From Candidatus Rokuibacteriota bacterium (lineage in GTDB: Bacteria > Methylomirabilota > Methylomirabilia > Rokubacteriales > CSP1-6), in the NCBI GenBank assembly GCA_016866775.1, contig VGLJ01000002.1, positions 28,174 to 92,173 on the forward strand: 64,000 nucleotides of DNA, given 5' to 3'. This document shows, piece after piece, positions 806 to 63,636 of this stretch. Within the stretch, counting starts at the first letter, position 1; the number at the start of each line of letters is the position of its first letter. The position numbers and the translations under genes are program-made. Below the pieces are notes generated by a model that made no database searches, was not told where the DNA came from, and saw only the letters and a program-made list of their open reading frames with translations.

Positions 806-1330
806 TTGCCCTTGGCGCCAACCACGTGGTTCGACTGGATCACGGTGATCGCGATCGTCCTTGGGCCCATCCTTGCGCTTTTGGCTCGGCGAGCGCTGGA
901 CTGGATTCGCGAGAAGAGACAACGCCGAGTTAGCCTCTGCTTGAGACTCATGGGGACGCGTGCGGCGTATCTGTCCCCCGAACACGTTCAAGCGCTGAAT
1001 TCGATTGACGTTGTTTTCAGTCGGCGAGGAGATCGTCAAGTACGCGACGCTTGGCAGAAGTTTCTTGCCCATGTAGCACCGCCGACCACCAACCTCGGAT
1101 GGAATAGAACCTATGACGACTTGAAGCTCGACCTCCTTCAGACGATGGGGTCGCGGGTCGGCTACCGATTCAGTACTGATGACCTGCGTCGCCAGATTTA
1201 CGCTCCCGCGGGATATGCGCAAGTCGAGCAAGAGAACGTTCAGCTTCGGCAGGCGCTCCTGACGATTCTGACCGAGCAAGTAGTCCACGATCCTGCTGTT
1301 GGGGGGAGGCACGAAGGAGCACGCCGTGAG
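806..1330 (+). CDS. hypothetical membrane-anchored protein in a lower-GC segment; no in-frame stop before the REP element (frame runs antisense through lpdA to 2002)
   Basis: N-terminal TM helix WFDWITVIAIVLGPILALLA; local GC clearly below flanks; frame +1 has TAG at ~1281, so an indel may have removed the natural stop. Confidence 0.3.
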
Positions 1331-1378
1331 GCGTGCGACGACGGTCGGAAGGGGGGCGAAGCCCCCCTCCGAGTGTTA
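1331..1378. repeat. REP-like GC-rich palindromic element, copy A (gcgtgcgacgacggtcGGAAGGGGGGcgaagCCCCCCTCCgagtgtta)
   Basis: Near-identical copies at 15921..15966 (inverted) and 54366..54414, half-copy at 63184..63203; its 3' end overlaps the lpdA stop codon. Confidence 0.65.
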
Positions 1379-2758
1379 CAGGTGGATCGCTTGACCGAGC
1401 GCGCCCAGCGTCGCCTCGAGCGCGGCCTCGGACAGCGTCGGGTGGGCGTGGATCGTATGGATGATCTCCTCGAGCGTCGCCTCGAGTGTGCGGCCGACCG
1501 CGAACTCGTGGATCATCTCCGTCGCCTCGGGCCCGAGAATGTGGACGCCGAGGATCTCGCCCGTCGACTTGTCGGCCACCACCTTCACGAAGCCGTCCGT
1601 GTCGCCGAGCGCCACCGCCTTGCCGCTCGCGGTGAACGGGAACTTGCCGACCGTGACCGTGCGGCCGTTCTCCTTCGCCTTGGCCTCGGTGAGGCCGATC
1701 GACGCGATCTGCGGGCGGCAGTACGTGCAGGACGGGACGTTCGTGTAGTCGACGGGGCGCGGGCTCTTGCCCGCGATCGCCTCCGCCGCCACGACGCCTT
1801 CGGCCATGGCCTTGTGCGCGAGCAGCGGCGCGCCCGCCATGTCGCCGATCGCGTAGACGCCCTTCACCGACGTCTCCATCATCGGGGAGACCTTCACGAA
1901 GTTCTTCTCCGTCTGGATGCCGAGGTTGTCGAGGCCGACGTCCTTCACCTTCGCGGCGCGGCCGACGGCCATCAGCACCTGCTCGGCGTCGAGCGTCCCT
2001 GAATCCGTCGTCACGCGGACGCCCTTGTCGCTCGCCGTAACCGACTGCACCTTCACGCCGGTCTTCGCCTCGATCTTCCGGCGCGCGAAGATGCGCGAGA
2101 GCTGCGTGGACACTTCCTCGTCCTCGATCGGGACGATCCGCGGCAACGCCTCCAGCAGCGTGACCGTCGTGCCGTACGCGCTGTAGACGTCCGCGAACTC
2201 CACGCCGACCGCGCCCGCGCCGATGATCACGAGCGACGCGGGACGGCCTTCGTTGCGCACGGCGCCGTTCGAGGAGATCACGCGCTTCTCGTCGATCGTC
2301 ACCCCGGGGATCGAGCGGGGCTCGGAGCCGGTCGCGAGGATCACCGCGCGGCCTTCGAGCGTCGTGGTGCCGGCGGCGCCGGTCACCTCGACGGCGGTCG
2401 CGCTCCGCAGCACGCCGCGGCCGGGCACGAGCGTGATCTTGTTCTTGCGGAACAGGAACTCGACGCCCTTCGCCATCCGGTCGGCGACCCGCCGGCTCCT
2501 GCGCACGGCCTCGGCGTAGTCGGCCTGGAAGCCGCTCACCTTGATGCCGAACTCCTCGGCGCGCGCGAAGAGGTGGACGACCTCGGCGTTGCGCAGCAGC
2601 GCCTTGGTGGGGATGCAGCCCCAGTTGAGGCACACGCCGCCCGGGCGATCGTCCTCGACCGCGGCCACGGAGAGACCGAGCTGCGCGCACCGGATCGCGG
2701 ACACGTAACCGCCCGGGCCCGTGCCGACGACGACGACGTCGAACTTCTGGGTCGCCAT
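1376..2758 (-). CDS. lpdA: dihydrolipoyl dehydrogenase (E3)
   Basis: N-terminal FAD motif VVVVGTGPGGYVSAI, redox-active CLNWGCIPTK, C-terminal HAHPTLSE. Confidence 0.95.
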   Translation of the reverse strand: MATQKFDVVVVGTGPGGYVSAIRCAQLGLSVAAVEDDRPGGVCLNWGCIPTKALLRNAEVVHLFARAEEFGIKVSGFQADYAEAVRRSRRVADRMAKGVEFLFRKNKITLVPGRGVLRSATAVEVTGAAGTTTLEGRAVILATGSEPRSIPGVTIDEKRVISSNGAVRNEGRPASLVIIGAGAVGVEFADVYSAYGTTVTLLEALPRIVPIEDEEVSTQLSRIFARRKIEAKTGVKVQSVTASDKGVRVTTDSGTLDAEQVLMAVGRAAKVKDVGLDNLGIQTEKNFVKVSPMMETSVKGVYAIGDMAGAPLLAHKAMAEGVVAAEAIAGKSPRPVDYTNVPSCTYCRPQIASIGLTEAKAKENGRTVTVGKFPFTASGKAVALGDTDGFVKVVADKSTGEILGVHILGPEATEMIHEFAVGRTLEATLEEIIHTIHAHPTLSEAALEATLGALGQAIHL

Positions 2759-2761
2759 CGC

Positions 2762-4177
2762 CTAGACCAGGAGCCGCAGCGACTCTTCGAGGAGACGCTT
2801 GACGTCCTGCAGGAAGCGCGCGCCCATCGCGCCGTCCATCACGCGGTGGTCGCACGAGAGCGTCATCATCATGCGGCGTCCGACGCCGAGCCCGGTGTCG
2901 TCGACGACCGGCACCTGCCGCACCGTGCCCACCGCGAGGATCGCGCCCTCCGGCGGGTTGATGATCGCGGAGAACTCGGTCACGTCGTACATGCCGAGGT
3001 TCGAGATCGAGAACGTCGCGCCCGACATCTCCTGCGCGCGCAGCTTGCGGTTGCGCGCGCGCTCGGCGAGATCCCGCGACTCGACCGCGATCTGGCTCAG
3101 GCTCTTCGCGTGGCAGTCGCGGAGCACGGGCGTGATCAATCCCTCCTCGAGCGCGACCGCGATTCCGATGTGCGCGCGGTGATACACGCGGATCGCCTCG
3201 CCCTGGAACGACGCGTTCACGCCGGGATGCTGCAGCAGCGCGAGCGCGCAGGCGCGAACGACGAAGTCGTTCACGGAGATCTTCGGCTGCCCTTCGAGGC
3301 CGTTCAGCTCCTCACGGAGCTCCCACGCGCGATCCATGGCGACTTCGCTCGAGACGTAGAAGTGCGGCACCGGCGCTTTCGACAGCGGCATCCGCTTGGC
3401 GATGATGGCGCGCATCTGCGACAGGGGCCGATCCTCGAACTCCGGACCGGCGGGGACGGCGACGGCTTGTGCCGTCGCGCCGCTCGCGGCCGGCGCCATG
3501 ACGGCGGCTTCGACGTCCTTGCGGACGATGCGTCCGCCGGGTCCACTGCCATGCACGAGCCGAAGATCAACGCCCGACTGCGCGGCAACTTTGCGCGCGA
3601 GCGGCGAGGCTTTGACACGGCCGGTGCTCGCGGCAGCGGGCGTCCTCGCCGCTGCCGCGCCTGCCCCCGATCGCGCAGCGGGTTCGGCGCGCTCGACGGT
3701 GACGTGATCTTCGCCGCGCGGCTGGGGAGGCACGGCCGCAGGCCGCGACGATGTTGCGCCGCTCGTCGCCCCTCCGCGTGATGGAGCCGAGGCTGGGGCG
3801 GCGGCGGCTCCGGGGGATGTCCGGCCGACATCCGCAGGCCCTGCGAGGACCGGAGGCCGGGCATCCCCCGGAGCCGCCGCCGCCCCAGCCGCCGCACCGC
3901 CACCAGCGGAGGCGACGACCGACGCGATGTCTTCGTTCGCCTCGGCAATGACGGCGATGAGCGTGCCGACGGGCGCCCGATCGCCCTCGGCCACGAGAAT
4001 CTTGCGCAGCACGCCCGCGCCGAAGGCCTCCATCTCGACGTCGGCCTTGTCGGTCTCGACCTCGGCGAGGATGTCGCCGCCGTTGACGCGGTCGCCTTCC
4101 TTCTTGATCCACTTGATGACCTTGCCGGTCTCCATCGCTTCGGACAGCTTCGGCATGACGACCTTGGTGATGGCCAT
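2762..4177 (-). CDS. dihydrolipoamide acyltransferase (E2) of the pyruvate/2-oxoacid dehydrogenase complex
   Basis: Lipoyl domain (ETDKADVEMEA), Ala/Pro linker, E3-binding domain, catalytic DHRVMDGA motif. Confidence 0.9.
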   Translation of the reverse strand: MAITKVVMPKLSEAMETGKVIKWIKKEGDRVNGGDILAEVETDKADVEMEAFGAGVLRKILVAEGDRAPVGTLIAVIAEANEDIASVVASAGGGAAAGAAAAPGDARPPVLAGPADVGRTSPGAAAAPASAPSRGGATSGATSSRPAAVPPQPRGEDHVTVERAEPAARSGAGAAAARTPAAASTGRVKASPLARKVAAQSGVDLRLVHGSGPGGRIVRKDVEAAVMAPAASGATAQAVAVPAGPEFEDRPLSQMRAIIAKRMPLSKAPVPHFYVSSEVAMDRAWELREELNGLEGQPKISVNDFVVRACALALLQHPGVNASFQGEAIRVYHRAHIGIAVALEEGLITPVLRDCHAKSLSQIAVESRDLAERARNRKLRAQEMSGATFSISNLGMYDVTEFSAIINPPEGAILAVGTVRQVPVVDDTGLGVGRRMMMTLSCDHRVMDGAMGARFLQDVKRLLEESLRLLV

Positions 4178-15631: not shown

Positions 15632-15917
15632 CCGCGCGGCGCCGGAGCCGCCGGTTGATGGCCGCGAGGAGCCGGCGCTGATCGAGCAAGATCAGCAGCA
15701 GCTGACCGAAGACGATGAAGGGCGCGCCCGCGAGAATGCCGGACAGCACGAGGAACACCGCGACGACCACGCGCTCGAGGAACACCTGCCCGGTGACGCT
15801 CGCCCACGGCGTTTCGATGATGAGCGCGACGACGGCGAGCCCGGCACCGACGATGACGATGACGAGCCCGATGACGACGAGCAGCCGCGCCCAAAACCGG
15901 GTAACCCGCTCACTCAT
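15627..15917 (-). CDS. small hypothetical membrane protein (96 aa, 3 predicted TM helices)
   Basis: ATG at 15915-15917; [34 protein letters not shown]...; sits between the REP copy and lipA. Confidence 0.5.
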
Positions 15918-15920
15918 GGA

Positions 15921-15966
15921 ACTCGGAAGGGGGGGCTGCGCCCCCCTTCCGACGGTCGTCGCGCAC
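15921..15966. repeat. REP-like palindromic element, copy B (inverted orientation relative to copies A and C; perfect 10-bp stem GGAAGGGGGG/CCCCCCTTCC)
   Basis: actcGGAAGGGGGGgctgcgCCCCCCTTCCgacggtcgtcgcgcac; between tRNA-Leu(GAG) and the small membrane gene. Confidence 0.65.
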
Positions 15967-16155
15967 TGGCGCGCGCTCCTCCCTGCCGCCCCCCAGAAGC
16001 AGGATTGCGCGGGCAAAGCCCGCGCTCGAACCCCGTCGATTGCGCGTCTTGAAAGCGCCCCGCGTCCATTCGGCACTCGCGGAGCGCGCCGATTCATTCG
16101 GCGTGCGGAGCGTTGGGGAGTTTGGGGGGGCGCCTCGCATCCCCCCATGGTGATC

Positions 16156-16240
<85 letters not shown>

Positions 16241-16261
16241 AAGGGCTGGCGTGCGCCGGAG

Positions 16262-16290
16262 AGTATATCGCTAGCCTTTGCGCGTCGCAA
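16262..16290 (-). promoter_or_regulatory. sigma70-like promoter TTGCGA-N17-TATACT upstream of tRNA-Leu(GAG)
   Basis: -10 TATACT lies ~21 nt upstream of the tRNA 5' end; overlaps the 3' end of the upstream permease gene. Confidence 0.45.
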
Positions 16291-17131
16291 CGCGACCGGC
16301 CGCTTGTCGCAGGCGTGGATCGAGCGCGTCGCGAATGCCTTCGCCGAGCAGGTTGTACGAGAGCACGGTGACGAGGATCGCGACGCCGGGATAGAAGGAG
16401 AGCCACCAGCCGATCTCGATCGTGTCCTTCCCCTCGTTGAGGATGTTCCCCCACGTCGCGTACGGCGGCTGCACGCCGAGGCCGAGGAACGAGAGGCCGG
16501 ACTCCGTGAGGATCGCCGCGGGAATGCCGAGCGTCATCGCGACGAGCACGGGGGCCATCGCGTTCGGCAGGATGTGCCGCCACACCACCCGGTAGCCGCT
16601 CGCGCCGATCGCCTGCGACCACACGACGAACTCGCGCTCCTTGAGCGCGAGGAATTCCGCGCGCACGAGCCGCGTCACGCCCATCCAGCCCGTGAGGCCG
16701 ATGACGGCCATGATCGTCCAGATCGACGGACGGAGGAACGCGAGCACGGCGAGGAGCAGGAAGAAGCGCGGGAAGACGAGCATCAGGTCCACGAGCCGCA
16801 TGATGAACGCGTCGAAGCTGCCGCCGTTGTAGCCGGCGAGCGCGCCGAGGACGATGCCGATCGCCGTCGCGATGCCGACGGAGACGAAGCCGACCGCGAG
16901 CGAGACCCGCGCGCCGAAGAGCATGCGCGAGAGCACGTCGCGCCCGAGCTGGTCGGTGCCGAGCGGATGGCTGCGCGTCGGGTCGGCGAGGATCTTCTTC
17001 ACGTCCGGACGATTCGGATCCCAGGGCGAGAACAGCGGCGCGAACGCCGCCAGGACGACGAGGACGATGACGACGACGCCGCCGACGACGGCGAGCCGGT
17101 TGCGCCGGAACGCGCGCCAGAAGTCCTTCAC
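16271..17131 (-). CDS. ABC transporter permease (DppC/OppC type)
   Basis: Binding-protein-dependent transport system inner-membrane component signature (EAA-like region ...[11 protein letters not shown]...). Confidence 0.9.
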
Positions 17132-30253: not shown

Positions 30254-30865
30254 TCAGGCGGCGCCGGCCAGGTAGCCCGCGAGCTTCTTGCGGACGAACA
30301 GCCGCGACCGGTGCACCCGCGACTTCACCGCGGGCAGGCTGATGCCGAGCGTCTCCGCGATGTCCGGGTTCGGCATGCCTTCGACGTCGTGCATCACGAG
30401 CGCCGTGCGGTAGTCCGGCGGCAGCTCGCCGATCGCCCGCTCGAGGACGTCGCGCAGCTCGCCGTTCACGGCGTTGTCGTCCACGCGCGGCGCCCAGTCG
30501 TCCATCGGCTCGAAGTGCAGGCCCTCCCCGTCCATCGCCGGCAGCACGTCGTCGAGCGCGATCTCGTGGGCCTTCGCCTTGCGCGAGCGCAGCTTCTGGT
30601 ACGCGGCGTTCGCGGCGATGCGATAGAGCCAGCTGCCGAACTGCGACTCGCCCTTGAAGCTGGCGATCTTCCGCGCGGCGGTCCACAGCGCGTCCTGCGT
30701 CGCTTCCTCGGCGTCCTCGTTGGAGCCGGTGATCCGGTAGGTCAGCCGGTACACACGGTCGCCGTAGGTGTCGACGAGCAGCTCCGCCGCCGCGGGATCT
30801 TCCGCGCGAAGCGCTTCGAGCAGCGCCGCGTCGCGATCCACTTTCGGACGGGTTTCCGTCGTCAT
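30254..30865 (-). CDS. ECF-type RNA polymerase sigma factor (sigma-70 regions 2 and 4)
   Basis: Region 2 ...YRLTYRITGSNEDAEEATQDALW... and region 4 ...YRTALVMHDVEGMPNPDIAETLGISLPAVKSRVHRSR. Confidence 0.85.
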   Translation of the reverse strand: MTTETRPKVDRDAALLEALRAEDPAAAELLVDTYGDRVYRLTYRITGSNEDAEEATQDALWTAARKIASFKGESQFGSWLYRIAANAAYQKLRSRKAKAHEIALDDVLPAMDGEGLHFEPMDDWAPRVDDNAVNGELRDVLERAIGELPPDYRTALVMHDVEGMPNPDIAETLGISLPAVKSRVHRSRLFVRKKLAGYLAGAA

Positions 30866-31485
30866 CGTCCTCGCTCGTAAAGCGTGAGGTAGTGATTCAT
30901 CTCCTCAACGCACCGATCCATCACTGCGATCTCTTTCGTGAGCTTCGTCAGCAGCATCGCGCCTTCGAGCGATGCCACGAGGAAGTGGGCGACCGCCTGC
31001 GGTCGACACGCCTCGTTCAGCTCGCCGCGCGCCTGCGCCTCCTCGAGCGCCCGGGTCAGGCGCGCGTTCCAGCGCGCGAACAGCCCCGCGAGGCGCGTGC
31101 GGAACCCCTCGTGGACGTCCGCGAGCTCTGCCGCCAGGTTCCCGAAGAGGCAGCCTCCCACACAGTTGCGCGCCTCCACGGCCTCACGCACGCGGCCGAG
31201 GAAGCAGCGGATCTGATCGACCCGCGGCGCGTCGGTATCGGCGAAGCACGGCTCGATCCCCCGGGTGATGAAGCTGTCGATGACCCGGTCAAGGATCGCG
31301 AAGCCGAGGTCTTCCTTGCTCTTGAAGTAGTGATAGAAGTTGCCTTTTCCGACTCCGCTGGCGCTCAGGACGTCATCGAGCGTCGTGCTCTGGTAGCCCT
31401 TGAGGTGGATCAGGCGGGTCGCCGCCTCGATCACCGCCTCGCGGGTGCCCTTGCCTTCTTTCGCCCGGGTCGCTGTCGCCGTCAT
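30862..31485 (-). CDS. TetR-family transcriptional regulator (ATG at 31483-85; alternative TTG at 31500); overlaps the ECF sigma start
   Basis: N-terminal HTH TRLIHLKGYQSTTLDDVLSASGVGKGNFYHYFKSKEDL. Confidence 0.85.
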   Translation of the reverse strand: MTATATRAKEGKGTREAVIEAATRLIHLKGYQSTTLDDVLSASGVGKGNFYHYFKSKEDLGFAILDRVIDSFITRGIEPCFADTDAPRVDQIRCFLGRVREAVEARNCVGGCLFGNLAAELADVHEGFRTRLAGLFARWNARLTRALEEAQARGELNEACRPQAVAHFLVASLEGAMLLTKLTKEIAVMDRCVEEMNHYLTLYERGR

Positions 31486-31493
31486 CTCGCTCT

Positions 31494-31538
31494 GTACCAA
31501 CTAGTCGGTACAATACCGACCGTTGCGCGTCGTGTCAA
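31494..31538 (-). promoter_or_regulatory. TetR promoter TTGACA-N17-TATTGT with overlapping palindromic operator GTACCAACTAGTCGGTAC / CGGTAcaaTACCG
   Basis: Perfect -35 hexamer, 17-nt spacer, 18-bp palindrome (8/9 arm matches) between the -10 and the start codon. Confidence 0.5.
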
Positions 31539-31633
31539 CAGGTGTGTCCGAGACCCCTGAGACCCCGTGCGACGCCTGACGTGAAAGCGGGGTTCGAGCG
31601 CCGGCTTCGCCGGCGCAACTCCTGGGGGGAGTG

Positions 31634-31659
31634 TCGAGGGGGGCCGTCGAGGCCCCCTC
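31634..31659 (-). terminator. hairpin CGAGGGGGGCC-gtcga-GGCCCCCTCG after the nuoN stop
   Basis: 10-bp GC stem 4 nt downstream of the stop codon. Confidence 0.5.
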
Positions 31660-31662
31660 GAG

Positions 31663-33090
31663 TCAGAAGAGAGGGGTGGCGACCCGAAGCGCGGCCATCA
31701 CCAGGGGCTTCGGGTACACGCCGAGCACGACGACCCCGAGCACGCAGAGCAGGAGCGCGATCGCCAGCGTCGGCGCCACGCGGATGCGCGCCGCGCGCTC
31801 CGGCGCCTCGATGTACATCCGCTTCGCGATGACGAGGTAGTAGAAGAGCGCCACGACGGTGAGGATCGCGCCGACGAGCACGAGCCAGTAGAGGCCGGCC
31901 GCCGCCGCCGCCCAGAAGACGTAGAGCTTCGCCCAGAAGCCCGCAACGAACGGGATCCCGCCGAGCGAGAGCAGGAAGAGCAGCATCGACAGCGCGAGGA
32001 GCGGCGAGCGCTGCGCGAGGCCGCGGAACGCGGCGGTGCTTTCCGACCCTTCGAAGCGCGCGACGGCGTCGACCACGAGGAACGCGCCCATGTTCCCGAA
32101 CACGTACGCGACGAGATAGAAGAGCACCATCGCCGTGCCGGAGGCGGAGGCCGCGGCGAAGCCGACCAGCATGTAGCCGATCTGCGCGATCCCGGAGTAC
32201 GCGAGGAGCCGCTTCGTGTTCTGCTGCGGAAGCGCCATCAGGTTGCCCGCCAGCATCGTGATCGTCGCCAGCCCGGCGGCGATCGGGATCCATGCCACGA
32301 CCCGCTCGCCCGCGCCCTCGTAGTACACGCGGAAGAGCGCGACGAAGCCCGCGGCCTTCGGCGCGACGCTGAGCCACGCGACGAACGGCGTACTCGCCGC
32401 CTCGTAGGTGTCGGGCACCCACATGTGGAACGGAAACGCGGCGATCTTGAACGCGAAGCCGGCGAACGCGGCGAGCAGGCCGAGCACGAGCAGCGGCGAG
32501 CCCGCGGCGAAGGCTTTCGCCACGCCCGCGAGGCTCGTCGTCCCCGCCGCGCCGTAGACGAACGACAGCCCGTACGCCATGACCGCGGACGACACGCTCC
32601 CGACGAGGAAGAACTTGAGCGCGGCCTCCACGGCGATCGCGTCGCGCTTGACGAAGCCCGAGAGCACGTAGAGCGGGATCGACATCAGCTCGAACGCGAG
32701 AAAGAGCAGGATCAGATCGCGCGCGGACGCCAGCACGCACATGCCGAGGAGCGACGTGAGCACGAGCAAGTGGTACTCGCCCGATCGCCGCGCGAAGACC
32801 GGGTCGGTCGACGAGAGCCCCGCGAGCAGGCCGATGAACGTCGCGATCAGGAAGAGCCGCTTGGCGAAGATCGCCAGGCCGTCGAGCACGAACATCCCGC
32901 CGAGGGCCGGGGGGACCGTCGACGCCGGCGCCACGAGGAAGCTCCCGGCGAGCACGACCAGCACACCGATCGTGGCGAGCCATCCGATCGCGCGGCGGTC
33001 GTCGCCGCGCGCGAAGAGCGTGGCGAGGAACACGAGCAGCACCAGTACGCCGAGGCCGATCTCCAGCGCGAAGGGCGACGTGACCGTCAC
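31663..33090 (-). CDS. nuoN: NADH-quinone oxidoreductase subunit N (cluster 2), GTG start overlapping the nuoM stop
   Basis: 14-TM antiporter-like subunit; NuoN-family sequence. Confidence 0.9.
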   Translation of the reverse strand: MTVTSPFALEIGLGVLVLLVFLATLFARGDDRRAIGWLATIGVLVVLAGSFLVAPASTVPPALGGMFVLDGLAIFAKRLFLIATFIGLLAGLSSTDPVFARRSGEYHLLVLTSLLGMCVLASARDLILLFLAFELMSIPLYVLSGFVKRDAIAVEAALKFFLVGSVSSAVMAYGLSFVYGAAGTTSLAGVAKAFAAGSPLLVLGLLAAFAGFAFKIAAFPFHMWVPDTYEAASTPFVAWLSVAPKAAGFVALFRVYYEGAGERVVAWIPIAAGLATITMLAGNLMALPQQNTKRLLAYSGIAQIGYMLVGFAAASASGTAMVLFYLVAYVFGNMGAFLVVDAVARFEGSESTAAFRGLAQRSPLLALSMLLFLLSLGGIPFVAGFWAKLYVFWAAAAAGLYWLVLVGAILTVVALFYYLVIAKRMYIEAPERAARIRVAPTLAIALLLCVLGVVVLGVYPKPLVMAALRVATPLF

Positions 33091-53389: not shown

Positions 53390-54264
53390 GTCTGCCGGCC
53401 TCCGAGCAGGCCCGTGGGCCGCACGAGGAGGACGAGCACGAGCAGCACGTACGCGACGACCTCGGAGAGCTGCGTGGTGAGGAAGAGCGAGGCGAGCTGC
53501 TCGATCAGCCCGAGCAGCATCCCGCCGAGGAGCGCGCCCGGGTAGTTCCCCGCGCCGCCGAGGACGATCACGAGGAACGACTTGAACGTCCAGATCTGGC
53601 CCATCTCCGGCTGGATGGCGACGATGACCGAGATCAACGCGCCCCCCGCGGCGGCGAGCGCGCTCGCGAGCCCGAACGTGAGGCGGTGGATCTTGCCCAC
53701 GTCGATGCCGCACACCATCGCGACCTCGCGGCTCTGCGACGTCGCGCGGATCGCCTTGCCGAGGCGCGTGGACCGGAGGAAGAGGAACGCGCCGCCGGTG
53801 AGGAAGCCGGCGAACACGAACGCGATGACGCGCGACTTCGAGAAGGCGAACGGGCCGAGCACCCACGAGCCCGTGATGTATTCGACCGCGCGCAGGTCGG
53901 AGGTGAACGCGAGCTGTGCTCCGTTGACGAGCGCGATGGAGATGCCGAACGTCAGCAGCAGCGACGACAGCTCGGGCGCGTCGACGACGCGGAACACGAG
54001 CGTCCGCTCCAGCACGACGCCGGCGACGAACAGCACGGCCATGCTGATCGGCACGGTGAGATACGGATTCAGCCCGAACGCGCTGTAGAGGAAGAAGGTC
54101 GTGTACGCGCCGAGCATCAGCAGGGGCCCGTGCGCGACGTTGATGATCCTCATGACGCCGAAGATCAGCGCGAGCCCGAGCGCGACCATCGAATAGAGAA
54201 CGCCCGAGAGAATGCCCGAGATGATGACCTGCCCGATCATGGCCGGCGTGATGACGATGTTCAT
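53386..54264 (-). CDS. livH: branched-chain amino acid ABC permease LivH
   Basis: LivH-type sequence (GVMRIINVAHGPLLMLGAYTT...). Confidence 0.9.
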   Translation of the reverse strand: MNIVITPAMIGQVIISGILSGVLYSMVALGLALIFGVMRIINVAHGPLLMLGAYTTFFLYSAFGLNPYLTVPISMAVLFVAGVVLERTLVFRVVDAPELSSLLLTFGISIALVNGAQLAFTSDLRAVEYITGSWVLGPFAFSKSRVIAFVFAGFLTGGAFLFLRSTRLGKAIRATSQSREVAMVCGIDVGKIHRLTFGLASALAAAGGALISVIVAIQPEMGQIWTFKSFLVIVLGGAGNYPGALLGGMLLGLIEQLASLFLTTQLSEVVAYVLLVLVLLVRPTGLLGGRQT

Positions 54265-54365
54265 GTGGCTCTGATCTCAATCGTCACGCGTTGGCTCAGC
54301 AGTGTCCGAGCGCCGGCTCCGCCGGCGCATCCTGCCCTGGGGAGGCAGGAAGGAGCACGCCGCAG

Positions 54366-54414
54366 GCGTGCGACGACCGTCGGAAGGGGGGCGCGAAGCC
54401 CCCCTCCGAGTTAT
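54366..54414. repeat. REP-like palindromic element, copy C, filling the livK-livH intergenic spacer and abutting the livK stop codon
   Basis: gcgtgcgacgaccgtcGGAAGGGGGGcgcgaagCCCCCCTCCgagttatc; ~90% identical to copy A. Confidence 0.65.
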
Positions 54415-55593
54415 CTATCGCCCGGACCAGGGTGGAGTGGGGAAGAGGACCTTGCCCTGGGCGAGGTCGTCCGGCCACACGATGACCTTCTTCTCCTTCT
54501 GCCACTGGAAGGTGACCATCTTGTGCGCGGTCTGGAAGCCGTCCTGGTCGACCTTGTAGTCGCCGAACATCGTGCGGATCTCGAGCTTCAGCAGCGCGTC
54601 ACGCACCTTGTCGGAGTCGAGGCTGCCGGCGCGCTTGACGCCCTCCGCGTAGATCAGGCAGCCCGCGTAGCCGGCCGCGGAGTGGTACACCGGCTCGCGC
54701 TTGAACTCGGCCTTGTACGCCTCGAACCATTCCTTGTTGCCGGGATACTTGAGGTCCGCCTCCCACTGCGTGGCGCCGTAGATGTACTCGGCGTTGCCCT
54801 TCAGCAGGTCGTAGAACTCCGGGAGGTCCCCGCCGACGGTCACGCCGTACATCTTCGGGTTCACGTTGAGCTCGCGCATCTGCCGCGTGAGCGCGACCGC
54901 GTCGTCGAAGTACGTCGCGGCGGCGATGACGTCCGGGTTGGCGGCCTTGATCTTCGTCAGCAGTGCGGAAAAGTCCGTGTTGCCCTTCGGGTACGCCTCG
55001 GTCAAGACGATCTGCATGCCCTTTTTCTTGGCGAGGTCGGCGGCGCCGGCCGCCGCAGCCTTCGAGAACAGCGTGTCCTCGTTCACGATGGCCACGGTCT
55101 TGAGCCCGCGCCTGGCCGCCGTGTCGACGAGGCCCTCCAGGTACACCTCGGCGGGCGAGATGACCATGAACATGTACTTGCGGCCCTTCTTGAAGATCGA
55201 CGTCGTCGCGGCGAGCGGCGACACCATCACCTTTTTGTACTTCTCGGTGACGTTGGCCACGGCCTCGGTGATCGGCGACGAATACGGGCCCATCACCACG
55301 TCGACCTTGTCCTCGGTGATCAGCTTTTCGTACAGGCGCACGCCCGTCGGCGGCATCGACTGGTCGTCGTAGATGACGAACTCGACTTTCCGGCCGAGCA
55401 GGCCGCCCTTCGCGTTCAACTCCTTCTGGCAGAACTGGTAGCCCTCGTGCTGGTATTTTCCGGGCTTCGCGTAGGTGCCGGTCAGCGACAGCGAGGCGCC
55501 GATCCGGATCGGGCCCTGGGCGTCGGCCGCGAGCGAGGCACAGAAGACGCCGAGGACCGTGAGAACGACGGCGAGAATCGCCGGACGTTTCAT
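54415..55593 (-). CDS. livK: branched-chain amino acid ABC transporter substrate-binding protein (true start MKRPAILAVVL, signal peptide)
   Basis: Periplasmic binding protein type I (LivJ/K-like); GGAGGT RBS. Confidence 0.9.
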   Translation of the reverse strand: MKRPAILAVVLTVLGVFCASLAADAQGPIRIGASLSLTGTYAKPGKYQHEGYQFCQKELNAKGGLLGRKVEFVIYDDQSMPPTGVRLYEKLITEDKVDVVMGPYSSPITEAVANVTEKYKKVMVSPLAATTSIFKKGRKYMFMVISPAEVYLEGLVDTAARRGLKTVAIVNEDTLFSKAAAAGAADLAKKKGMQIVLTEAYPKGNTDFSALLTKIKAANPDVIAAATYFDDAVALTRQMRELNVNPKMYGVTVGGDLPEFYDLLKGNAEYIYGATQWEADLKYPGNKEWFEAYKAEFKREPVYHSAAGYAGCLIYAEGVKRAGSLDSDKVRDALLKLEIRTMFGDYKVDQDGFQTAHKMVTFQWQKEKKVIVWPDDLAQGKVLFPTPPWSGR

Positions 55594-63183: not shown

Positions 63184-63203
63184 GCAGCCCCCTCCGAGTT
63201 ATC
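63184..63203. repeat. half-copy of the REP-like element (agCCCCCTCCgagttatc); its TTA supplies the stop codon of the REC gene
   Basis: Matches the 3' half of copy C. Confidence 0.4.
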
Positions 63204-63636
63204 GCTTTCCGGACGCCTGGAGGACTTCGCGGAAGACCCGGTAGAACGCGTCGTTCTCGGCGACGGCGCGGCGCAGGAGCGTCGCGAGCTGCGCGACGTC
63301 GCTGGTGTTGACCACGGCGTTCACGCTCCGCGCGAAGGCGGTGGCGTTGTCGAGCGTCTTCACGTCGGCGGCGAGGAGCGTCACGAACATGTAGCGCCGG
63401 ATCGACATCGGCATCGTGTTGAGCGCCTTGAGCACGGCGTGATCGAGCGCGGTGGCGCCGTCGTACGCCTCGTCGACGACGACGACCTGGTAGGCGACCT
63501 TCCGCAGGCGATCGGCCGCCTCGGCGGCGCCGGACGCCGTCTCGGGCGCGTAGCCGAGCTCTTCGAGGGCCTTGCGCACGGCGCCGCGGCGGTCGCCGTC
63601 GTCCACGCAGATCAGGGCCGGAGACGGATCACTCAT
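63199..63636 (-). CDS. single-domain receiver-like response regulator (PilG/PilH-like context)
   Basis: LICVDDGD...VVVVDEAYDG acidic pocket; overlaps the pilT-like gene end. Confidence 0.55.
   Translation of the reverse strand: MSDPSPALICVDDGDRRGAVRKALEELGYAPETASGAAEAADRLRKVAYQVVVVDEAYDGATALDHAVLKALNTMPMSIRRYMFVTLLAADVKTLDNATAFARSVNAVVNTSDVAQLATLLRRAVAENDAFYRVFREVLQASGKR

Follow-up and report, generated by a model that had tools for sequence, protein, structure and literature searches.

A GC-rich palindrome recurs in near-identical form at positions 1331..1378 and 54366..54414, and inverted at 15921..15966, of a 64,000-nt stretch of a Candidatus Rokuibacteriota contig, referred to here as the window. 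The initial annotation described these sequences as ~45-bp REP/MITE-like elements found at gene 3' ends in both orientations. This raises the question of what the repeated unit is, how it has spread and what it does next to stop codons. Rokubacteria, uncultured bacteria that abound in soil, have large genomes; to our knowledge, nothing is known about their gene-end signals.

The 22-mer GCGACGACSGTCGGAAGGGGGG is identical in the three copies (A, B and C). It matches the window three times and has no match in 100 dinucleotide-preserving shuffles; the pattern GGAAGGGGGG-N3-9-CCCCCC gave the same result (three window copies, none in the shuffles), so the similarity among the copies is not due to chance. 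In a wide alignment of A, B and C, homology extends ~60 nt further 5' than the borders first proposed. Window copies were placed using a covariance model (CM) built from 96 copies. According to the model and the alignment, the repeated unit is not the ~45-bp palindrome but a sequence of ~108 nt with three different hairpins. The forward strand is defined here as the strand with GGAAGGGGGG. The window copies, and the parts of copy C, are the following:

1271-1373, plus strand: copy A (CM score 90.6 bits)
15922-16030, minus strand: copy B, full element (99.6 bits)
31593-31662, plus strand: copy E, a natural short form overlooked in the initial annotation (48.2 bits, E 8e-8)
54305-54410, plus strand: copy C, full element (96.6 bits, E 2e-17)
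54310-54328, plus strand: hairpin P1 of copy C, GCGCCGGC-TCC-GCCGGCGC
54338-54354, plus strand: purine-rich tract of copy C, GGGGAGGCAGGAAGGAG (pyrimidine-rich CUCCUUCCUGCCUCCCC in the mRNA sense), in nearly invariant columns
54355-54371, plus strand: hairpin P3 of copy C, GCACGCC-GCA-GGCGTGC
54372-54410, plus strand: 3' module of copy C, the portion noticed at first, consisting of GACGACCGTC with the CGTC tag, hairpin P5 (GGAAGGGGGG-CGCGAAG-CCCCCCTCC) and a GAG tail
63184-63198, plus strand: copy D, a decayed 3' remnant, GCAGCCCCCTCCGAG

A half-copy had been reported at 63184..63203; a remnant is present there, but it is only 15 nt long and not significant for the CM.

Oriented copies range from 103 to 115 nt, the commonest length being 107-109 nt, and conform to the consensus TTCGAGCGCCGGCTTCGCCGGCGCAATCC-(variable 0-20)-TGGGGGGAGGCAGGGAGGAGCGCGCCGTCAGGCGCGCGACGACCGTCGGAAGGGGGGCGAAGCCCCCCTCCGAG. 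From the 5' end, the unit comprises P1, a variable linker, the conserved purine-rich tract, P3 and the CGTC-tagged G6/C6 hairpin P5, the same G6/C6-cored hairpin that had been noticed and that is present in the copies on folding. RNAalifold and a neutral pair count define a P1 of 8 bp, a P3 of 7 bp plus three outer pairs, and the G6/C6 stem of P5. A 4-bp helix, in which 5' UCGA pairs with UCGG just 5' of P5, closes P1-P3, and the purine-rich tract of copy C is partly paired as an optional helix P2. Pairing is kept in 99.3% of 2658 cells, compared with 39-55% when partners are slid. Double-change cells number 105, against 31 in shuffles, and none of 500 shuffles reaches the observed values. Two P1 pairs covary, 9-21 (CG/GC 82/12) and 10-20 (CG/GC 54/41). 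Five of the 7 pairs of P3 feature double changes; pair 68-88, for instance, is found as GC65/AU20/GU7, and pair 71-85 clearly covaries. Pair 59-97, which joins GGCA[G/C]G and GACGAC[C/G]GTC, is G-C in 73 copies and C-G in 21, with 1 mismatch. Copies were retrieved by an exact 20-mer, and the invariance of columns 91-110 reflects this ascertainment. Each strand of the window copies folds better than shuffled sequences (z -2.7 to -5.3), the lowest z being that of copy C (-69.7 kcal/mol, z -5.3). A loop-loop interaction between P1 (CUUCG) and P5 (CGAAG) was considered and set aside: the consensus tips are reverse-complementary, but the loops do not covary.

Most occurrences (95/~110) are single P1-core-P5 units. 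Partial forms are rare: P1 may be combined with an alternative terminal hairpin (the short form), P5 may stand alone, P3 may be swapped or P1 duplicated; duplicated P1 modules are found in only 3 cases, and module swaps are few. A regular-expression search returned 45 candidate solitary P1 modules, which are mostly GC-rich coding noise with ~5 genuine partial forms, and the family is therefore not a BIME-like mosaic. Subfamily markers are reshuffled among copies. A leftward extension of the border by ~12 nt (CGAT..A.CCGCG) is present in one sub-family only and was not included in the unit.

All copies are extragenic. Gene strands were called by an ORF filter for high G+C sequences (GC3 > GC1 > GC2), and on this basis 79/83 resolvable copies adjoin, with their ...CCTCCGAG side, the 3' end of an opposite-strand gene. 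The initial annotation, which had described REP-like intergenic repeats at gene 3' ends, is supported in this respect. Both strands are used, as it had also stated, but the element is strictly polar with respect to the upstream gene. In 60 copies, the stop codon lies 0-8 nt from the ...CCTCCGAG end. As this end faces the stop of the opposite-strand gene, the mRNA of the upstream gene carries the reverse complement of the element, in which P5 starts 3-9 nt past the stop codon. The far-side neighbour is a same-strand gene in ~49 copies (about 60%, intercistronic) and a convergent gene in ~31 (about 40%). In intercistronic copies, a possible next start is often 10-60 nt away. Upstream genes are diverse and of an ordinary housekeeping type (77 Pfam families in 63 proteins), and no transposase was detected by Pfam among these 63 proteins. 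By analogy with malE, an enrichment of binding-protein genes was looked for; such genes account for only 6/63 upstream genes.

Flanks have a low information content (<=0.7 bit on the left, where CCGCG is weakly preferred, and <=0.2 bit on the right). The TAG triplet is over-represented beside the element (32/60 vs 34% background), and there is no fixed target motif. Stop codons are part of the flanks and not of the element, and flanks are not conserved between copies; the view that the TTA of copies A and D is the element's own stop is thus not borne out.

Housekeeping operons surround the window copies, which are spaced 14-22 kb apart and occur on both strands, an arrangement that does not fit an integron attC array. 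The 3' border of copy A falls 2 nt short of the dihydrolipoyl dehydrogenase gene (1376-2758, minus strand), whose stop is the TAA at 1376-1378. Copy A belongs to the GGCAC..GACGACG subfamily and has a complete core and P5; 11 unrelated nt are found in place of P1, which suggests a later rearrangement or insertion at its left end. Positions 1-1330 of the window form a patch of lower GC content (55-60% at 800-1300) with two plus-strand ORFs, one encoding a DUF6036 nucleotidyltransferase (271-717) and one a DUF6680 protein (806 onward). As the initial annotation noted, the latter has no stop before copy A; it passes through the copy, and the next in-frame stop is at 2002.

Copy B, one of the rare copies in the forward sense relative to its neighbours, was correctly placed between a tRNA and a small gene. 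It is located 125 nt downstream of tRNA-Leu(GAG) (16156-16240, minus strand); on its downstream side, 4 nt separate it from the ATG (15915-15917) that opens a same-strand ORF of 96 aa. A separate G7/C7 hairpin, GGGGGGATGCGAGGCGCCCCCCC (window ~16125-16150, minus strand), directly follows the tRNA gene upstream of copy B.

Copy C lies between a Peripla_BP_6 binding-protein gene (stop at 54415-54417, minus strand) and a BPD_transp_2 permease gene (start at 54262-54264, minus strand), as assigned by Pfam, and the operon mRNA carries the reverse complement of the element. The copy had been thought to end at the livK stop. The stop of the binding-protein gene does adjoin it, but the 3' border is 4 nt before the in-frame TAG (CTA at 54415-54417), and the TTA at 54411-13 is not a stop.

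Copy E consists of P1, a G-run and a variant terminal hairpin (TCGAGGGGGGCC-GTCGA-GGCCCCCTCGA) and lacks the central P3 core. It abuts the TGA (31663-31665) of a gene for an Mrp/Nuo-type antiporter subunit and precedes a TetR gene. An operator-like palindrome, TGTACCAACTAGTCGGTACA (window ~31494-31513), is found between the TetR-family gene (30862-31500, minus strand) and copy E. Copy D abuts the TAA (63199-63201) of an ORF (63199-63636, minus strand) that had been described as a REC gene; its Response_reg match is below threshold (15.4 vs 30.2 bits).

A terminator function, one of those initially suggested, finds no support in the sequences downstream of the hairpins. None of these is followed by a U-tract (P5 is followed by ...CCGAG and, on the other strand, P1 by ...CTCGAA), and an intrinsic (Rho-independent) terminator is therefore not supported. 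A consensus scan detected neither a terminator nor a promoter at copy C. Strong stop-proximal hairpins are not a general feature of genes in the window. In these high-G+C bacteria, in which U-tract terminators are lacking here, the element may be a useful handle on how mRNA 3' ends and intercistronic regions are controlled.

The best reading of the element class is a non-coding, non-autonomous repeat of the REP class, resembling CGTC-tagged REPs and set off by its composite, single and strictly polar build. The P5 module (~30 nt) fits the size of a REP palindrome, while the repeated unit is ~108 nt long with three unrelated hairpins. A CGTC tag is found directly 5' of the P5 stem in all copies, the tag being part of the 20-mer used for retrieval; remnant-like forms retain the tag as well (ACGGTCG in L115). 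CGTC-tagged REPs feature, as P5 does, an unpaired CGTC tag, a G+C stem of 9-10 bp, a 5-nt loop and a short unpaired tail (Di Nocera, De Gregorio & Rocco 2013; PMC3733652). Like the element, they are extragenic, occupy spacers between ORFs in unidirectional or convergent arrangement, at most 20 bp from the end of the upstream ORF, and have no known dedicated transposase. In contrast to these REPs, P5 never forms head-to-head dimers and is joined to two unrelated hairpins and a purine tract, and the element is strictly polar and occurs in a phylum outside those reported (PMC3733652). Families CGTC-1 to CGTC-4 have a stem of 8-9 bp with complementary A/T at positions 1-2, a 4-5 nt loop and a CCA-like tail (PMC3733652). 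The CGAAG loop of the element fits this description; since the stem (GGAAGGGGGG/CCCCCCTCC) begins with GG rather than A/T and the tail is GAG, the element falls outside the four families.

Similarities to the REP and BIME sequences of E. coli include the location of hairpins at 3' ends and between cistrons, the occupation of a binding-protein/permease junction (copy C; compare malE-malF), a first stem <=15 nt from the stop and the retention of some copies at orthologous sites. E. coli REPs are ~35 nt long, GTAG-tagged and RAYT-associated, and are arranged as inverted pairs in mosaics, whereas the element is a single composite unit, may occur in tens rather than hundreds of copies per genome outside the window and has the same sequence order-wide. 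A REPIN or BIME organization was rejected, most occurrences being single units rather than closely spaced inverted pairs or mosaics.

Miniature IS200/IS605-type elements also lack terminal inverted repeats (TIR) and target-site duplications (TSD), have a different hairpin near each end and a strand-asymmetric structure; the element differs from them in having no conserved target tetranucleotide and in including old orthologous copies under selection. The 830 kb surrounding 109 copies revealed no parent IS with tnpA/tnpB. Neisseria Correia elements and enterobacterial ERIC sequences are likewise dispersed structured repeats of ~100-150 nt, and they are co-transcribed with neighbouring genes and alter mRNA processing. 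They carry terminal inverted repeats, and Correia elements TA duplications as well, whereas the element has neither. Its ends, TTCGAGCG and CCTCCGAG, are not inverted repeats, and flanking direct repeats of >=8 nt occur in 5/95 copies vs 8/300 random pairings, which leaves no ground for the MITE-like label.

A few longer flanking repeats were seen. L091:1202-1304, L042:7366-7468 and L070:3770-3878 form an orthologous group in which the element lies in the forward sense between two same-strand genes. A direct repeat of 17-20 nt, CAAGGAGGCGACGCTGT(G/A)A, flanks it there and contains both the left gene's stop and the right gene's RBS. In L057 and L061, 9-11 nt of the end of the right gene are duplicated. 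As candidate target duplications, the 17 nt of L091 and the 9-11 nt of L057 and L061 were considered; duplications of this length are not general.

Scanning species-representative genomes with the 20-mer GACGACSGTCGGAAGGGGGG revealed exact-core matches in at least 108 stretches. The genome-wide search suggested by the initial annotation thus returned many further copies, all of them extragenic, an outcome that does not refute the annotation. Nearly all the matches listed are from MAGs labelled Candidatus Rokubacteria, Rokuibacteriota or Methylomirabilota, and at least 40 species-level assemblies are represented. L018 and L077 are chance matches to the 20-mer without the element. Four contigs labelled Elusimicrobia (L015), Acidoferrum (L029), Casimicrobiaceae (L078) and Deferrimicrobiaceae (L106) bear full elements. 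Of these, L029 and L106 have their orthologue in the Methylomirabilota locus L085. Because the flanks of the full elements are Rokubacteria-like and orthologous, these other-phylum contigs are probably mis-binned, and the element could consequently be used to mark Rokubacteriales contigs or DNA.

The element was not found in a search of 2.9 million viral contigs. In Rfam 15, no family matches the element at the gathering threshold, and only tRNAs pass in the window. The best match over the element is RsmW (CsrB/Rsm clan; 22.1 bits vs a gathering score of 52, E 0.12). This sub-threshold match covers all of copy B on the forward strand (window 15850-16300), where several GGA motifs are found. 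A literature search retrieved no paper on repeats in Methylomirabilota and none with the motif. The family is a previously undescribed structured extragenic repeat of ~108 nt, specific to Rokubacteria (order Rokubacteriales, phylum Methylomirabilota). With one consensus in at least 40 species and a location at stop codons, it is a candidate Rfam-type family. Some ~770 kb around the seed copies contain only ~3-4 further copies, while the 64 kb of the window hold four copies and a remnant; a typical genome may therefore have tens of copies, and the window is dense.

Many copies are located at orthologous sites in different species, as 63 copy pairs have common flanks. In 21 orthologous pairs with a clean coding flank, identity is 0.93, 0.96 and 0.73 at codon positions 1, 2 and 3, respectively, 0.87 in the element without the ascertained 20-mer, and 0.91 when the variable linker is also left out. 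The element exceeds third codon positions in 21/21 pairs. Non-orthologous copies are 0.84-0.88 identical. All copies thus conform to a single consensus, which would be maintained through purifying selection on the sequence or through homogenisation.

Presence and absence in related lineages, a comparison also proposed at the outset, was assessed at the binding-protein (SBP)/permease junction, using eighty genes related to the window's SBP gene (62-91% identity). Sites range from full through decayed to empty:

Full element: window, L118-120, L128 (in L128 its end is 8 nt before the permease ATG)
Short form: L121, where the form of copy E recurs at the orthologous site
Swapped or interrupted module: L110, L117
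Remnants with only P5 and ACGGTCG, comparable to copy D: L115, L178, L149
Unrelated G+C hairpins: L109, L137
Bare 30-nt spacer: L136, L143, L123

In L110:1566-1700, an unrelated hairpin (AAAAAGAGCGGGCC-GTCG-GCCCGCTCTTTTT) is found in place of P3, and in L117:4140-4300 the 3' arm of P5 is broken by an insertion of ~55 nt. In the SBP protein tree, all states but the short form fall in one clade, in which filled, decayed and empty sites are interleaved. The simplest history would be one old gain followed by at least five losses, and the element, being repeatedly lost, is dispensable at this site. The family offers a test case for the spread and domestication of REP-like elements without a known transposase.

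The data establish the family, its fold, its polarity beside stop codons and its gain, decay and loss at an orthologous site, and they point to purifying selection on its sequence; the mode of action is inferred from them. As for function, we lean, at roughly even confidence, towards a REP-class family that spread long ago, was then inherited vertically and acts in the transcript of the upstream gene as a hairpin barrier. The old spread would have relied on a mechanism leaving no inverted ends or target duplications, before vertical inheritance took over. The element would act as its reverse complement in the upstream-gene transcript. Since the hairpin cluster begins 3-9 nt past the stop, a terminating ribosome would have to melt the first stem, and the cluster would form a stable 3'-end or intercistronic barrier. 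Behind such a barrier, the upstream message could be sheltered from 3'-5' decay, and the upstream and downstream cistrons, for instance binding protein and permease, could be expressed independently. That the unpaired tracts are nearly invariant implies that a shared trans-acting partner, protein or RNA, would read the element sequence.

Judging from the arrangement of the copies, a hairpin role within operons is plausible, and the mode of action would most likely follow the precedent of E. coli REPs, which protect transcripts from 3'-5' decay and uncouple cistron expression; the malE-malF REP reportedly stabilises its mRNA. The unrelated hairpins at the same junction in element-less lineages (L109, L137) fit a barrier role. 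[quoted passage not shown]

Evidence against a role in the upstream transcript comes from the strands, as both the G.U bias and the loop types favour the strand antisense to the upstream mRNA. Among non-Watson-Crick cells of P1 and P3 on the forward strand, which is antisense to the upstream-gene mRNA, 37 are of G.U type and 6 of A.C type, a count that leaves out pair 2-102 and an alignment artefact at pair 105-124. In 8 separate orthologous groups, pair 67-89 is polymorphic for U.G, a C-to-T change in column 67; no instance of the mirror change was observed. Forward-strand loops are mostly GNNA in P3 and mostly C-GNA-G in P5. The C-to-T biases expected of non-template and lagging-template strands would give the opposite pattern. 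Pairing seems to be best preserved on the antisense strand, which keeps alive two rivals that place function in single-stranded DNA or in forward-sense RNA. If real, this strand paradox would be biology outside current REP models. Also weighing against the transcript role are the missing U-tract, the absence of a general pattern of strong stop-proximal hairpins in the window and the repeated loss of the element at one site.

The first of these rivals, possible though we hold it to be on the unlikely side, is a selfish single-stranded DNA element of the REP/RAYT or miniature IS200/IS605 type. The forward strand would be active, the subterminal P1 and P5 would be recognised by an HUH/Y1 or other enzyme, and the stop-proximal polarity would mark tolerated insertion sites. 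The hairpins near both ends, the lack of TIR and TSD, the CGTC tag 5' of P5, as in tagged REPs, and the weak CCGCG preference at the left junction are in line with such an element. So are the strand-asymmetric conservation, the reshuffled subfamily markers, the gain and loss at an orthologous site and the GNA/GNNA loops, among them d(GCGAAGC), a very stable single-stranded DNA mini-hairpin. However, no Y1-transposase-like ORF was detected by phmmer among 5924 ORFs in 830 kb around 109 copies (a small sample, with YafM and IS608 TnpA queries), and 95/96 copies are distinct in sequence, so that there was no recent burst. Moreover, many copies are kept at orthologous sites and evolve more slowly than synonymous sites, the 95% polarity to the adjacent gene exceeds the expectation from gene-strand bias, and genes co-oriented with replication would expose the mRNA-sense lagging template rather than the forward strand.

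Another reading, which we regard as unlikely, is that the element is no passive REP but a module kept by selection whose functional form is the strand antisense to the adjacent mRNA, read by a sequence-specific partner. This form could be single-stranded DNA, placed beside stops by a new hairpin-recognising enzyme, or an antisense RNA. If true, an uncultured phylum would harbour a polar gene-end element of a new class.

It is improbable that the functional molecule is a forward-strand RNA, either an antisense transcript or the 3' UTR of a convergent gene, whose GGA/GGAGG-rich tract would serve as a sponge for a CsrA/Rsm-like protein or block convergent transcription. The G.U and loop-type bias points to the forward strand, as do the lower folding energy of this strand in 96/96 copies and the whole-element RsmW match. 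However, an energy difference is expected of any G-rich strand, and the RsmW match is far under threshold. About 60% of copies lie between same-strand genes, where no forward-sense transcript is known; moreover, conservation is lacking in the upstream flank, and the scan detected no promoter-like site.

It is quite improbable that the element acts as duplex DNA, bound by a nucleoid protein, gyrase or a similar factor in the way proposed for E. coli BIMEs, with no role for RNA. Such a site would account for the conserved sequence of the unpaired tracts in all copies, but compensatory pair-keeping changes and strand asymmetry are unexpected for a duplex site, and the stop-codon polarity is left unexplained. 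A remnant of a DDE-transposon MITE, or chance GC-rich similarity, which short dispersed repeats in a 70% G+C genome might bring to mind, is very improbable, and in effect already refuted, given the lack of shuffle matches, of TIR and of an excess of flanking direct repeats, and the occurrence in at least 40 species.

An inverted repeat of another kind was also observed in the window. Its two 81-nt arms (3746-3826 and 3855-3935) are 79% complementary and 28 nt apart, and lie within the E2 acyltransferase gene (2762-4177, minus strand).
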